Below are positions 29,679 to 56,680 of a stretch of 64,000 nt of DNA, in pieces. This stretch comes from Escherichia phage ECO4: sequence record NC_054911.1. One strand, given 5' to 3'. Below the pieces are notes generated by a model, which worked only from the letters and a program-made list of their open reading frames with translations, searched no databases and was not told the origin of the DNA. The stretch's first letter is position 1, and every line of letters begins with the position of its first letter. Both the position numbers and the translations under genes were made by a program.

Positions 29679-29978
29679 TTATTTTAAAACTTCTGTGTAA
29701 TCACATGTTACAAACTGTTTCTCTAGCTTGACGATTTTACGAAAGTATCTTTTACATTGACGAATCTGTCGCTTAGTAGGGCGCACAGCAAACTTAATAA
29801 ATTCCACTCGACCAAATGGAGGGCTTTCTTCTGATGGAATATCTAACACCAATTCCCACGTATCTGCAATAAGTGCTTTGAATTGAGTATTTTTCCTAAC
29901 GTTATACGGAGTAGGTTTAAATAAAACAATATGCATATTATCCTCGGCAATCCACTTCACATACTTTCTTGTCATCAA
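29679..29978 (-). CDS. Hypothetical basic protein (99 aa), 61.4-like position
   Basis: ORF adjacent to dmd. Confidence 0.55.
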   Translation of the reverse strand: MMTRKYVKWIAEDNMHIVLFKPTPYNVRKNTQFKALIADTWELVLDIPSEESPPFGRVEFIKFAVRPTKRQIRQCKRYFRKIVKLEKQFVTCDYTEVLK

Positions 29979-30120
29979 TGAAAGCTTTAACTAATGCTTT
30001 ATTAACTTCAGCATACTGAGTAGTAGCCCATTGAACGTCATCTTTCATCATTGTGGTTTCTTTAGTAAACATGCTTTCATTCTTAAACCACCCCATAAAA
30101 ACTACCTTTACCAATTCCAT
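29938..30120 (-). CDS. dmd: Dmd antitoxin-like protein (inhibitor of RnlA/LsoA)
   Basis: 60 aa, immediately next to gene 41 as T4 61.5. Confidence 0.7.
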   Translation of the reverse strand: MELVKVVFMGWFKNESMFTKETTMMKDDVQWATTQYAEVNKALVKAFIDDKKVCEVDCRG

Positions 30121-52061: not shown

Positions 52062-52888
52062 AATAATATCCAATTTTTCCAAGCTTCATCAGTAGAATTA
52101 CAGCGTTTTAGTATAAGATGTCTAGAAACTTTTATGGCATTTGAGCACTTTTTAATTGAATCATATTTAATACCGTCAACTGAAACGGTTTTGCTAATTG
52201 GAGAAATTTTTCCATACATTGGATTTTTTGAACCAACTTGAAGTCCTTTTAAAGCTTTTGAAAGCTTTTGTCTAGATTCCAATGACATGGGAGAATTCTT
52301 TTTACCTTCAATAATTCGCTTGCGATGAAGTTCGCGTTCTTCTTCACTCAAAGAATTGTAATATTTTTTAACACCGTTTGATATAGATAATTTATCTTTC
52401 TCAGACCGCTCTCCAGCTAATTTACTTCTAACATCTTTTCGCTTCATAGCTATGCTTACGGCTTTATTTAAATTTGCTTGATGCTCTGGCGTACGTTTAT
52501 ATTTCTTTAAAGCACGTGAAATAGCTATTTTAGTTTCTTCTGTTCTCTTTTTACCTTTATTTGCTAAACTATTTTTGCGGCGATGTTCAAGTGTCTGTTC
52601 ATAGGCAGTTCCACCTTTTCCACCAGGTTTAATATTATATGTATTTTCTTTTAGACAATACTCTTCGGTTACAAGTTCAGCTTCTTTATCATACATCTGT
52701 TTTTCATTATCAAAAACATGTAAAATTTCTTTATTAAAATTTTTTCTACCATATTTTAATAAAGCGGCACGAATCAATGTTCCTGACCCCATATAACCGT
52801 CATTTATGTTATCGGTGCTATGCGCACCGATATATTCCTTTGAATTAATTATATTTGTTATTTTATAAATTATATAATACCTATGCAT
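52058..52888 (-). mobile_element. Free-standing GIY-YIG homing endonuclease (276 aa) between nrdD and nrdG
   Basis: N-terminus YIIYKITNIINSKEYIGAH (GIY-YIG), NUMOD3-like repeats, C-terminal HTH-like VDGIKYDSIKKCSNAIKVSRHLILKRCNS resembling I-TevI architecture. Confidence 0.75.
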
Positions 52889-54698
52889 GTTTTACTCGTT
52901 TTACCATTTCTTTCATTTTACCTAAATTCCATGGAACAACGCTAGGAGTTCCAAGATATCCGCATGTTCTTCTTATTGTATTCATCTTTTTAGGATCAGT
53001 TTCTCCACAAATAGAACAAATAAATCCGCTTTCAGTAGGAGTCATTTCATGGGTGCTTCCGCATGTAAAACATTTATCTACTGGCATATTAACACCAAAA
53101 TAATCTAAATGTTGTGCAGCATAATCCCATACGGCCTCAAGACCCTTTAAGTTATTTTTCATATCAGGAAGTTCAACATAAGAAATGTGACCACCTGTCG
53201 CAATGAAATGATATGGTGCTTCTCGAGAAATCTTTTCAAACGGAGTAATATTTTCTTCTACTGAAACATGGAAACTGTTAGTGTACCAGCCTTTATCAGT
53301 AACATCCTTTACACTTCCATATTTTTCTGTATCAAGTTTACAGAAGCGATAACAAAGGTTTTCAGCAGGAGTCGAATATAAACTAAAAGCAAATCCAGTT
53401 CTTTCAGTCCACTGTTTAAGATGAGCATTCATTTTAGTTAAAATTTCTTGCCCGATATCACGTCCAACAAGAATATTCAATTCATGAATACCAATGTATC
53501 CTAGGGACACTGAACTTCTACCGTTTTTAAATAACTCAATTATGTCGTCATCAGGTTTAAGACGAACCCCGAATGCACCTTCTTGGTAAAGAATAGGAGC
53601 AACAGTCGCTTTAACTCCTTTTAAGGAACTAATTCTACACATCAAAGCTTCAAAACACAAATCCATACGTTCATTGAATAATTCAACAAATTTCTGTTCG
53701 TTAAATTGTGTTCCAATATAAGAATCTAATGCAATGCGAGGAAGATTCAGTGTTACAACACCAAGATTATTACGTCCATCAAGAATTTCATTACCAGTCG
53801 AATCTTTCCATACGCTCAAGAAACTACGGCAACCCATTGGAGAAACAGGAATAGATGAACCGGTGATAGCTTTATTATTCTTAACTGAAATAATATCAGG
53901 ATACATCCTTTTGCTTGCACACTCTAGAGCAAGCTGCTTAATATCATAGTTCGGATCGTCTTTATAAAGATTAACGCCTTCTTCAACGAACATAACAAGT
54001 TTAGGAAAAATAGGAGTTATCCCATCACGACCAAGACCTTTAATACGATTTTTCAGAATTGCTTTCTGAATCATTCGTTCAGTCCAGTCAGTTCCCGTAC
54101 CAAATGTAATTGTTACAAAGGGAGTCTGTCCGTTTGAACTAAAGAGAGTATTTACTTCATATTCATAAGCTTGGAATGCATCGTATACGTCTTTTTCTGT
54201 TTTAGATTGGGCATAATTCAGTGCATCGGCGATTTGCCATTTTTCTGCGTCCTCGATATGTTTTGCATAGGTGCGTTTAACATAAGGAGAAAGTACTTTA
54301 TCTACATTAGCAAAAGTCGTTCCGCCATATTGATGGGAAGCAACTTGCGCAGTAATTTGTGCCATAATTGCAGTAGCAACGCCAATTGATTTAGGAGTTT
54401 CAATCTGTGCATTACCAAGCTTAAATCCGTTTTCAAGCATTCCTTTTAAATCTACTAAACAACAATTAGTAAATGGAAGAGCAGGGGAATAATCAATATC
54501 ATGGAAATGAATAATTCCGCTTTCATGCGCTTTCATAATAAAAGACGGGACCATATTTTTGGCAATGTGTTTAGACACAATACCAGCCATAAGGTCCCGT
54601 TGAGTTGGAAAAACACGAGAATCTTTATTAGCATTCTCGTTTAAAAGGTCTTTATTAGTTTTATGAATCAATCCTTCAATTTCTTTTTCAATTGTCAT
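52881..54698 (-). CDS. nrdD: Anaerobic ribonucleoside-triphosphate reductase NrdD (class III), intronless
   Basis: 605 aa continuous ORF; C-terminal glycyl-radical motif RRTCGYLG. Confidence 0.95.
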   Translation of the reverse strand: MTIEKEIEGLIHKTNKDLLNENANKDSRVFPTQRDLMAGIVSKHIAKNMVPSFIMKAHESGIIHFHDIDYSPALPFTNCCLVDLKGMLENGFKLGNAQIETPKSIGVATAIMAQITAQVASHQYGGTTFANVDKVLSPYVKRTYAKHIEDAEKWQIADALNYAQSKTEKDVYDAFQAYEYEVNTLFSSNGQTPFVTITFGTGTDWTERMIQKAILKNRIKGLGRDGITPIFPKLVMFVEEGVNLYKDDPNYDIKQLALECASKRMYPDIISVKNNKAITGSSIPVSPMGCRSFLSVWKDSTGNEILDGRNNLGVVTLNLPRIALDSYIGTQFNEQKFVELFNERMDLCFEALMCRISSLKGVKATVAPILYQEGAFGVRLKPDDDIIELFKNGRSSVSLGYIGIHELNILVGRDIGQEILTKMNAHLKQWTERTGFAFSLYSTPAENLCYRFCKLDTEKYGSVKDVTDKGWYTNSFHVSVEENITPFEKISREAPYHFIATGGHISYVELPDMKNNLKGLEAVWDYAAQHLDYFGVNMPVDKCFTCGSTHEMTPTESGFICSICGETDPKKMNTIRRTCGYLGTPSVVPWNLGKMKEMVKRVKHA

Positions 54699-55168
54699 TT
54701 TAAACTCTTTCTAAGCTGCTTCTTAAATGAAGCTATTAATTGTGTTTTGGTGTCAAATTCATTATATTCAAATCCTCTTTGAAGCATCTCAGCCATCATT
54801 TCCTCTTTTCCTAAACGAGAAAATTCCTTTGATTTATCTCCAACGAAGTTAGGGTGAATATTATTTTGGGTGTAATCGGATTTTAAATAAGTAAGTAAAT
54901 TTTCTAACCATTCAAGATAATCAACACCCTGTCCCTTTAATCCAGAACGATTAAATTTATGCTTCATTTGACCTTCTGCAGCATTGCAGAGATTACAGAG
55001 CAATCCACGTACCTTTCCTGCTTTTGGTCCATTTAATTCATGGTCATGGTCAAGGTGATTAGCTTGAACATCAGGATTTAATTCTCGTTGGCAAATTAAG
55101 CATTTACCGTTTTGTGCATTATAAAATTTCTGTTTTTCTTCTTTATATAATTTGCCAGTCAATAACAT
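54695..55168 (-). CDS. 49: Endonuclease VII (Holliday junction resolvase) gp49
   Basis: 157 aa, zinc-binding CLICQ...CNLC, matches T4 endo VII. Confidence 0.9.
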   Translation of the reverse strand: MLLTGKLYKEEKQKFYNAQNGKCLICQRELNPDVQANHLDHDHELNGPKAGKVRGLLCNLCNAAEGQMKHKFNRSGLKGQGVDYLEWLENLLTYLKSDYTQNNIHPNFVGDKSKEFSRLGKEEMMAEMLQRGFEYNEFDTKTQLIASFKKQLRKSLK

Positions 55169-55175
55169 AATAAAA

Positions 55176-55198
55176 CCCTTACCTTAAATAGATAAGGG
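55176..55198 (-). promoter_or_regulatory. Hairpin (CCCTTA / TAAGGG) immediately upstream of the gene 49 start, embedding the SD
   Basis: Seen directly; T4 gene 49 translation is known to be modulated by an upstream hairpin. Confidence 0.4.
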
Positions 55199-55208
55199 TA
55201 TTTATTAT

Positions 55209-55256
55209 TTTCAAGTATTGTAAAACATTCGATGCAATCGCTTATATTGTCGAATC
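55209..55256 (-). repeat. Direct repeat copy A (48 bp)
   Basis: 45/48 identical to 55422..55469; covers the 3' end of the 58-aa ORF. Confidence 0.85.
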
Positions 55257-55387
55257 ATCTTTTTAGTAGGACGAGAATAGGTTCCTACGCAAGTGGTCAT
55301 ATGAGGGTCCGTAGAATGTCCTTTAATAAAAAGTTTCCAAACCTTACCGCCATTTAACTTTTCAGTATAAACCAATTCGGTTTTCAT
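55211..55387 (-). CDS. Small ORF (58 aa) whose last 13 aa duplicate the C-terminus of the downstream 161-aa protein
   Basis: Ends ...QYKRLHRMFYNT versus ...QYKRLNQMFYNT in the neighbour. Confidence 0.4.
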   Translation of the reverse strand: MKTELVYTEKLNGGKVWKLFIKGHSTDPHMTTCVGTYSRPTKKMIRQYKRLHRMFYNT

Positions 55388-55421
55388 TAAAATGTCCTGT
55401 CAGAAAAAGAATTTTGAGTTT

Positions 55422-55469
55422 TTTCAAGTATTGTAAAACATTTGATTCAATCGCTTATATTGCCGAATC
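55422..55469 (-). repeat. Direct repeat copy B (48 bp)
   Basis: Covers the 3' end of ORF 55424..55909. Confidence 0.85.
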
Positions 55470-55909
55470 TTTTGGTCAGAAAAAGAAATTTGAGTTTCAA
55501 GCCATTCAATGTACTCTGCGGCAGCTTGCATTAAATTTCCTTCATAACCATCGTTATTTTCTTGTGCAGCTAATTTAGCTAATGCGTATGAAATACGTTC
55601 ACCTTGAAAATCGGCTTTAGGCTTCTGAACAACTTGATTAGTTCGCTCTACAACTTCTTCAATTTCGCCATTTTCGACTGATTCAGTATTCCACAAGCAC
55701 CAATACGTAATTGGCTTATCATAGATGTTAATAATCTTTCCGTCGGAAAGTTCAATTTCAATAATTCCAGTATCAGGCTCTATATCATCTTCACATTCTT
55801 TTGCAAGTTCACGAACTTTAAAGACAGTACCTGCACTAAGTTCCGGCCAGTAATTACATAGCCCTGTATCAACACGATTAATTCTAAACCACTTATCTAC
55901 TGTAATCAT
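55424..55909 (-). CDS. Hypothetical protein (161 aa), possibly Pin (protease inhibitor)-like by position and size
   Basis: ATG 55909 with SD GGAG; located between 49 and nrdC; identity not verified. Confidence 0.5.
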   Translation of the reverse strand: MITVDKWFRINRVDTGLCNYWPELSAGTVFKVRELAKECEDDIEPDTGIIEIELSDGKIINIYDKPITYWCLWNTESVENGEIEEVVERTNQVVQKPKADFQGERISYALAKLAAQENNDGYEGNLMQAAAEYIEWLETQISFSDQKIRQYKRLNQMFYNT

Positions 55910-56031: not shown

Positions 56032-56241
56032 TTAACCCCGAAGCTTATTAAGTTCTTCATAATCAATCCAGGATTCTAATCCTGATGGCAAATCAGATTC
56101 AATTTCCCAAAGAAGCTCTTCAATTTTCTGAAGACGATCTAGTTCTTCGGCTGGAATAGTAACCATTGACGGAGTTCTTGATACACTAATATCGTAAATC
56201 ATATTTACCCCAGTTTGACCATGCAATCGCCGTATTTCCAC
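56032..56241 (-). CDS. Hypothetical protein (69 aa)
   Basis: ORF. Confidence 0.45.
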   Translation of the reverse strand: MEIRRLHGQTGVNMIYDISVSRTPSMVTIPAEELDRLQKIEELLWEIESDLPSGLESWIDYEELNKLRG

Positions 56242-56420
56242 TTAGAAATAGACTTTTCGCCATTAGAATAATAAACTTCGAGTTTAGCACGATTATTTTT
56301 AATTTGAATAACCTTGGCTGTCATCAAAGTTCCATACCCATAATAAACTGCAACCTCATCACCTACATATACCGCGCTTCCGCGGTAGTCATGGATATAA
56401 TCAGTTCCTTCGAGCATCAT
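56205..56420 (-). CDS. Hypothetical protein (71 aa)
   Basis: ORF. Confidence 0.45.
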   Translation of the reverse strand: MMLEGTDYIHDYRGSAVYVGDEVAVYYGYGTLMTAKVIQIKNNRAKLEVYYSNGEKSISKWKYGDCMVKLG

Positions 56421-56680
56421 TTAAAGTATTCCCGCAATTGGTCAAATCCACCAATATGACTTCCATCAGGAGCAAATACCTGGGGCATTGTCAATCCAAT
56501 TTGAGTATCACGACCTAGTTTAGTCAGAAGCTCAGCGATTTTCTCATCATCAAAAACACCTTTTTCCGGCATAATGTTAATAAATTCAAACGGCTGTTTC
56601 TTCACGGTCAAAAGACGTTTTGCATTATCGCAATACACACATTTATGAATGTTGCTATCATAACCATATACTTTAAACAT
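56417..56680 (-). CDS. nrdC: Thioredoxin/glutaredoxin NrdC
   Basis: 87 aa, CVYC active site, matches T4 NrdC. Confidence 0.85.
   Translation of the reverse strand: MFKVYGYDSNIHKCVYCDNAKRLLTVKKQPFEFINIMPEKGVFDDEKIAELLTKLGRDTQIGLTMPQVFAPDGSHIGGFDQLREYFK

Follow-up and report, generated by a model that had tools for sequence, protein, structure and literature searches.

Gene organization of the pin / gene 49 locus

The window analysed here, a stretch of 64,000 nucleotides from Escherichia phage ECO4 (NC_054911.1), belongs to a T4-like phage of the genus Tequatrovirus. A 1261-bp query across the region described below matched 695 phage records with a best identity of 97.9%, and the annotations in these records are nrdD, endonuclease VII, a hypothetical protein and pin. 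All genes of the locus are encoded on the minus strand (Table 1). The nrdD gene, which in the T4 GT7 record is joined from two pieces around the I-TevII intron, lacks this intron in the window phage. Between pin and nrdC, a 69-aa ORF (56032-56241, minus strand) gave a weak, sub-threshold match to the T7 gp5.9 RecBCD inhibitor (PF25708, 20.2 bits versus a cut-off of 24.5, E 5.7e-4); in the RB32 and PST records an ORF annotated as antitoxin has a comparable place next to gene 49.1, on its upstream side, and is likened to it by position alone.

Table 1. Coordinates of genes, repeats and junctions at the pin / gene 49 locus (window numbering).
Feature	Position	Strand	Description
nrdD	52881-54698	-	605-aa ORF, uninterrupted
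gene 49 (recombination endonuclease VII)	54695-55168	-	157-aa ORF; essential; lies downstream of the rearrangements; all matching records give endonuclease VII
gene 49 leader hairpin	55167-55208	-	MFE -18.2 kcal/mol, z -3.84
48-bp repeat, copy A	55209-55256	-	small-ORF 3' end: codons 45-58, stop and 2 nt past it; predicted original copy
small ORF, DUF7279	55211-55387	-	58 aa; homologue of RB32ORF078c and RB69ORF087c; ends IRQYKRLHRMFYNT + stop
non-coding remnant of ancestral pin 3' end	55387-55421	-	AAACTCAAAATTCTTTTTCTGAC AGG ACA TTT TAA
nested 23-nt repeat, copy 1	55399-55421	-	within the non-coding pin remnant
A6 run (T6 on the plus strand)	55419-55424	-	proposed illegitimate junction of fused pin end and old pin 3' remnant; reads CTTGAAAAAACTC
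48-bp repeat, copy B	55422-55469	-	pin codons 147 (last nt) to 161 and stop; predicted acquired copy
pin (PinA, predicted host Lon protease inhibitor)	55424-55909	-	161-aa chimeric form from ATG; residues 1-146 PinA family, 147-161 DUF7279 tail; ends IRQYKRLNQMFYNT + stop
fusion point in pin	55471-55472	-	codon 146 (pin) / codon 147 (small-ORF codon 44); T4 GAC CGA/ATG ATT
nested 23-nt repeat, copy 2	55475-55497	-	inside pin (codons for TQISFSD)
nrdC	56417-56680	-	past pin, gene 49.1 and further small genes

The leader of gene 49 contains a hairpin, beginning 4 nt past the small-ORF stop codon, within which the A and U of the gene 49 AUG are enclosed. None of 200 shuffled sequences folded as well, and the hairpin was also detected as terminator-like; several GenBank records annotate it as a terminator. 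The leader hairpin and late-promoter arrangement of T4 gene 49 were reportedly described by Barth and co-workers in 1988, and T4 is said to have a stable hairpin around this start codon right after the upstream stop codon, as is likewise found in the window. We take the window hairpin to be this translational control element, and it probably serves as such for gene 49. It lies outside the repeat discussed below and matters here only as an invariant boundary, being kept in all four gene architectures of the locus and forming the fixed right-hand limit of every rearrangement seen.

A 48-bp direct repeat at the 3' ends of pin and the small ORF

The initial annotation had pointed to a 48-bp direct repeat with 45 of 48 identical positions that duplicates the 3' end of a gene. 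Both points were confirmed by re-alignment. Copies A and B are offset by 213 bp, and the match lengthens to 47/51 if begun at 55206. Among all 48-nt direct repeats of the window this pair is the best; in 20 first-order Markov simulations of the window the top 48-nt match reached at most 33/48, and the analytic chance expectation for such a repeat is 7e-13 pairs. No third copy was detected in the window on either strand. Read on the minus strand, each copy comprises the final 13-14 codons and the stop codon of an ORF, so that both ORFs end with ...IRQYKRL(H/N)(R/Q)MFYNT. A second direct repeat of 23 nt (22/23 identical, offset 76), absent from the earlier account, is nested with the first. It consists of the pin codons for TQISFSD, which reappear just upstream of the small-ORF start codon.

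The small ORF and its C-terminal tail

The 58-aa ORF matched the Pfam family PF23945 (DUF7279) with E 3e-17 and 62.7 bits, compared to a gathering cut-off of 24.5, and phrog_3272 with E 3.4e-34. The PF23945 profile aligned over its entire length (1-53/53) with residues 7-56 of the small ORF and thus includes the tail. PF23945 is present in all 10 database homologues of the small ORF, and 25 columns are invariant. Comparison with 8 homologues from Tequatrovirus, Dhakavirus, Gaprivervirus and Mosigvirus yielded dN/dS values of 0.08-0.24. Since in addition the coding sequence of the tail carries many synonymous differences across genera, the tail is conserved as protein and not as a DNA or RNA signal. 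On this comparative evidence, the 58-aa ORF is a real, conserved protein-coding gene under selection.

RB69 (Mosigvirus), JS10 and UGJNEcP4 (both Dhakavirus) and VR7 (Gaprivervirus) have a DUF7279 homologue at the position just upstream of gene 49. In these four phages the small-ORF homologues end with RPTKKMIRQ(Y/F)KR(L/F)HRxFY, whereas the pin homologues end with ...LERRLS or ...SDEAF and are devoid of the tail. RB69ORF087c, RB32ORF078c, JS10 gp075 and VR7 ORF082c share the family, the site upstream of gene 49 and the C-terminal motif with the small ORF of the window, and no substantive difference between them was seen. The small ORF is intact in PEC04 (855-1031 of our locus L006), where it is unannotated in the GenBank record; in other GenBank records it is labelled only as 'hypothetical protein'.

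In an AlphaFold2 (AF2) model of the small ORF (pLDDT 81.5, one of five models being confident) three beta-strands are followed by a C-terminal helix (residues 42-56), which roughly corresponds to the segment shared with pin (small-ORF residues 44-58). A Foldseek search of this model against the PDB gave nothing significant (best E 0.27), and a profile search of 1.8 billion representatives returned only a handful of true DUF7279 relatives, i.e. a narrow family without a functional lead. The window contains a second member of the family, a 99-aa ORF (29679-29978, minus strand; motif VRPTKRQIRQCKRYFRK; Pfam E 1.9e-20), which directly follows dmd (29938-30120, PF17587, E 1.8e-45) and a gene 41-like helicase ORF. 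Both DUF7279 genes of the window therefore adjoin a gene countering a host function, dmd and pin, respectively.

PinA and its C-terminal extension

The 161-aa ORF matched PF10465 (Inhibitor_I24) over residues 4-141 with E 8.5e-48 and 162.2 bits (cut-off 27), and phrog_2167 over residues 1-146 with E 3.4e-66. The PinA family models thus end at residue 141 or 146, before the tail; the C-terminal 15 residues are foreign to the family, and the remainder is a bona fide member. Unfused pins of the same genus have 148 aa and end with SFSDRAF, pins of 136-144 aa likewise lack the tail, and across genera the unfused pins share the ending ...WLExQxxFSxxxF.

Because the DUF7279 profile includes the tail, the PinA models exclude it and the pins of the outgroups are devoid of it, the tail is, as far as family comparison can tell, native to the small ORF, and pin is the borrower. 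This is the opposite of the direction proposed in the initial annotation, where the small ORF was thought to have been created with a tail borrowed from its neighbour. Within the window alone both directions look alike. A young small ORF that arose, or received its C-terminus, by copying of the pin 3' end is nevertheless hardly credible: the small ORF is an old DUF7279 gene under purifying selection, its homologues in four genera keep the tail next to tailless pins, and the same motif is present in the second family member at 29679-29978. The comparative data refute this origin.

Compared to T4 PinA (pin; PF10465 Inhibitor_I24; UniProt P07068), the window pin shows 97% DNA identity, the same length and the same fusion point. 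The two differ in the tail allele (QKIRQYKRLNQMFYNT in the window, RMIQQYKRLHQMFYNT in T4) and in what follows, since the window pin precedes an old 3' end remnant and the intact small ORF, whereas the T4 pin abuts the gene 49 leader. Binding and inhibition of Lon protease by T4 PinA were established biochemically, according to literature cited in PMC8835725. From its PinA family membership and its identity to the T4 protein, the window pin is predicted to be a Lon inhibitor as well. A search for a PDB relative or a solved structure of PinA found none.

In the AF2 model of pin the tail extends the last helix (residues 122-159) with low confidence and without visible packing. The copy B tail of the window pin carries the changes H52N and R53Q (small-ORF numbering) at positions that are invariant in DUF7279. 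R53Q occurs in every fused pin allele seen except that of PST, as CAA where the small ORF has CGA. H52N belongs to the window allele and R46Q to the T4 pin, both again at invariant sites. Since the tail is altered at these sites, many phages possess an untailed pin and model confidence is low, the pin tail is probably a tolerated passenger under relaxed constraint.

Four arrangements of the locus in Tequatrovirus

Alignment of the region from the pin end to the gene 49 start in 13 phages revealed four types. In type A (NBG2, PEC04, IME340, F25, Sa45lw, pSs-1) a 148-aa pin ending with SFSDRAF is followed by the small ORF, the pin stop codon overlapping the small-ORF ATG (TAATG). Type D (T4, slur03, PST) has a 161-aa pin and no small ORF and is 137 bp shorter than A. 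Type W (the window, RB32, AV119) has the fused pin, then the A6 run and a 35-nt piece of the old pin 3' end with the old stop codon, and finally the intact small ORF; it exceeds A by 76 bp and D by 213 bp. In type E (Kha5h, teqsoen) pin has 148 aa and the small ORF has been lost via a 169-bp deletion between two GTTTTA motifs. The copy A sequence is the small-ORF end of the type A phages NBG2, PEC04, IME340 and pSs-1; that of F25 deviates from it by two synonymous differences, and Sa45lw has a variant (M54A).

The abundance of the four types was determined with junction-centred queries of 44-50 nt, for which half-matches fall below the E-value limit. Counting by coverage with a 131-nt query was confounded, as non-collinear pieces were merged into one place, and was replaced. 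IMG/VR scans with pin or the small ORF yielded 6 loci each, too few for population work, and the GenBank phage set was used. The fused junction (W and D together) was found in 364 records and the W junction in 112, 111 of which matched at at least 95% identity; 69 records carry the clean deletion junction of type E, and the small-ORF body is present in 177 records at at least 90% and in 109 at at least 99% identity. This leaves about 252 records for type D and about 65 for type A, and all four types together make about 498, in line with the 499-505 records that contain pin; these counts include GenBank/RefSeq duplicates and close isolates and do not represent independent lineages. T4 and T2 are of type D, and T6 carries the fused junction. 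In two records the match is imperfect: L14 (OQ992558) matches the W junction at only 89% over 55 nt, pointing to a small insertion, and NHEP10 (PQ511148) matches the Mosigvirus fusion junction described below at 79% over 63 nt. They may represent further structural variants at the same spot.

The small ORF is near single-copy, with 265 places in 264 records, and lies next to gene 49 in all 13 small-ORF-bearing records examined. Its presence or absence among genomes and its flanking direct repeats might recall an inserted mobile cassette with a target-site duplication, an idea that can practically be dismissed, being contradicted by the fixed locus (the same site upstream of gene 49 in four genera) and by a segment whose only gene is the DUF7279 ORF, with no transposase or homing endonuclease, and whose 'duplicated target' is the ORF's own coding end.

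Recombination between the repeat copies

A crossover between the 48-bp copies, spaced 213 bp apart, would lead to type D with loss of the small ORF, and a crossover between the 23-bp copies, spaced 76 bp apart, would restore type A with loss of the pin tail. Both predicted products are abundant in nature. The earlier suggestion that the repeat could mediate deletion of the small ORF is borne out by slur03, which matches the window at 100% up to and including copy B (55421 to 55505) and from there on has the sequence that lies downstream of copy A. It corresponds to the window minus exactly 213 bp with one copy left, so that natural genomes exist in which the small ORF is absent precisely at the repeat boundaries. 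T4 and PST have the same length as slur03, as members of the type found in the roughly 252 records. In PST the tail is chimeric: its 5' part has a pin-type junction (GACCAAAAGATTCG), and its 3' part, with CGA and the TAA stop codon, is the small-ORF copy of the RB32 type. Judged from this allele, copies A and B do exchange; PST fits an intramolecular deletion and an intergenomic crossover alike.

Origin of the pin fusion and of the window arrangement

The junction sequences of the relatives uphold the interpretation of the repeat as a footprint of illegitimate or short-homology recombination. Very probably, it is a scar left by recombination where pin borders gene 49 in T-even phages, not a functional device, and has the following history. 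The ancestral pin had 148 aa, ending with ...SFSDRAF, with its stop codon overlapping the small-ORF start codon (TAATG). As the junction sequences show, one blunt, illegitimate in-frame deletion of 137 bp joined pin codon 146 to small-ORF codon 44, taking out the small-ORF body and giving rise to the 161-aa PinA of T4. The T4 sequence ...TCT GAC CGA/ATG ATT CAG CAA... is exactly the type A pin up to codon 146 followed by small-ORF codon 44, with no bases shared at the join. RB32 (CAA ATG ATT) and the window (CAA AAG ATT) have the junction at the T4 position and with the T4 length and differ by one and two substitutions, respectively. All fused pins in the protein database have 161 aa. Together with the common junction codon and the presence of CAA in all tails examined except PST, this points to a single event for the pin fusion in Tequatrovirus. 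Blocked read-through was considered as a reason for the in-frame fusion and rejected: in both other frames of the tail stop codons occur within 1-5 codons, so that the choice of frame was not constrained in this way.

For type W we infer that pin was already fused when an intact small ORF, with 35 nt of the old pin 3' end still attached, was joined behind it by a second illegitimate event at a CTTGAAA / A-run microhomology. The most likely setting would be a mixed infection with a fused-type phage and an F25-like unfused-type phage, A having given rise to D by deletion, and D and an F25-like A to W via one illegitimate and one homologous exchange. The joins read CTTGAAAATAAT in type D, GGCTTGAAACTC in type A and CTTGAAAAAACTC in the window, where the A-run junction contains three A's beyond those predicted from a clean CTTGAAA microhomology join. 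The join between tail and remnant does not differ between the window, RB32 and AV119 and hardly varies among 112 records, arguing for a single origin. Base for base, the remnant corresponds to the 3' end of the functional pin in the unfused types, most closely to that of F25 (GAC AGG GCA TTT TAA), from which the window and AV119 deviate by one substitution each, a different one in either case. The old pin stop codon in the remnant still overlaps the small-ORF ATG. Within the remnant (55388-55398, minus strand), the window and RB32 read AGGACA where F25 has AGGGCA, which yields a Shine-Dalgarno-like AGGA motif some 8 nt ahead of the small-ORF ATG. It might, speculatively, compensate for a lost translational coupling of the small ORF to pin.

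A different order of events is possible, albeit considerably less probable. Type W could have come first by one complex replication error (template switching or partial duplication) in an unfused genome, whereby 76 bp, composed of a copy of the small-ORF tail and a 23-nt duplication of the pin end, would have been inserted into the pin end with the small ORF kept; the T4 types would have followed later via the 48-bp repeats. A single 76-bp block, flanked by the 23-nt repeat, is indeed all that distinguishes the window from the unfused types, and removal of 213 bp from the window type, with the boundaries lying inside the repeat, yields the T4-type alleles. The chimeric tail of PST is in line with this order, and each pin-tail allele of type W has a T4-type partner (window and slur03, RB32 and P0020). 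However, the pristine CGA/ATG junction has been seen only in a T4-type genome, and most T4-type tails are wholly of the copy B type, which would require nearly all crossovers to have occurred in the last 24 nt of the repeat. The small-ORF body of type W is near-invariant (the 109 records at at least 99%), as are the W junctions (111/112 at at least 95%), whereas the fused-junction alleles are more diverse, suggesting that W is the younger type. The order from A via D to W is thus the one suggested by the pristine junction of type D and by the low diversity of the W small ORF. Ordering the events by pin-body similarity failed. The alleles are mosaic and pin-body identity is not linked to architecture; homologous recombination has therefore scrambled the history, and no tree orders the events.

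Independent fusions of pin and DUF7279 genes

Further fusions between pin and DUF7279 genes were found. In the Mosigvirus phage vB_EcoM-ZQ3 and a metagenomic contig a 141-aa pin ends with ...YLERR/FHRDFYNVY. Here, the small ORF was lost through a deletion with an ACGTTT motif at either end, and only its last 9 codons remain, in frame. In two contigs (L031 and L032) a 1-nt deletion fuses an upstream DUF7279 paralogue in frame to the pin N-terminus, resulting in a 191-aa protein. An RB69-like contig (L030) has DUF7279 genes on both sides of pin, the paralogue just upstream of pin being an intact 56-aa ORF (1329-1499). RB69ORF089c of RB69 (L004, 1893-2009; annotated with 38 aa) looks like a copy of this 56-aa paralogue that is frameshifted at an A-run.

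The recurrence of such fusions hints that the tail may not be purely neutral, and it is only suggestive because neighbouring genes of the same direction are readily fused and a third of deletions stays in frame. The basic C-terminal helix of DUF7279 might bind a host or phage partner, possibly Lon, and might have been retained by pin as a functional module that improves or redirects inhibition. Three independent fusions, namely C-terminal in Tequatrovirus, C-terminal at a different junction in Mosigvirus and N-terminal to a paralogue, speak for this explanation, as do the flanking DUF7279 genes in L030 and the fact that the fused form is the majority with 364 of about 498 records. On the other hand, the pin tail has lost DUF7279-invariant residues (R53Q, H52N, R46Q), the Mosigvirus fusion keeps only 9 residues, the tail is modelled with low confidence and no packing, and about 134 Tequatrovirus records as well as most other genera do well with an untailed pin. 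Together with the ease of fusion, for which one third of the events is expected to be in frame, this makes a retained module rather improbable. Somewhat more doubtful still is the wider proposal that the DUF7279 helix is a portable interaction module and that DUF7279 and PinA form a two-component anti-host system, directed e.g. against Lon or another AAA+ machine, for which the fusions would be Rosetta-stone evidence and in which the tail would alter PinA activity or specificity.

Relation to known systems

The shared tail had been noticed by annotators, as the GenBank note of RB32ORF078c reads 'similar to RB69ORF087c, JS98orf087clike, pin', and this note leaves it unexplained. In the literature searched on PinA, DUF7279 and pin fusions we found no account of the origin of the tail and no mention of DUF7279. 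The underlying mechanisms, illegitimate deletion, short-homology recombination and T-even mosaicism, are well known, and the locus is a clear new instance of them.

Overall, our analysis has the consequence that the reference Lon inhibitor, the 161-aa PinA of T4, is a chimera whose last 15 residues stem from a neighbouring gene of another family and are absent from the natural pins of 148 aa and 136-144 aa. This is of use in construct design for structural work on Lon-PinA. Furthermore, the locus exemplifies how one deletion can provide a protein with a new C-terminus, how a gene that was lost can return next to the resulting chimera, and how nested repeats can flip gene arrangements in a phage population. 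It also draws attention to a conserved small gene (DUF7279) that is missing from some annotations, e.g. that of PEC04.

In T4, deletions and duplications between short direct repeats are long familiar from the classical rII end-points and from the plastic regions of T4-like genomes. The rearrangements at the pin / gene 49 boundary resemble them in the short or absent homology at their ends (the clean deletion has GTTTTA, the Mosigvirus fusion ACGTTT and the window junction CTTGAAA / A-run, and the T4 fusion is blunt) and in the occurrence of multiple structural alleles at one locus. They differ from them in that an in-frame chimeric protein became the majority allele and the laboratory reference protein, and in that a later event would have put the lost gene back beside the chimera.
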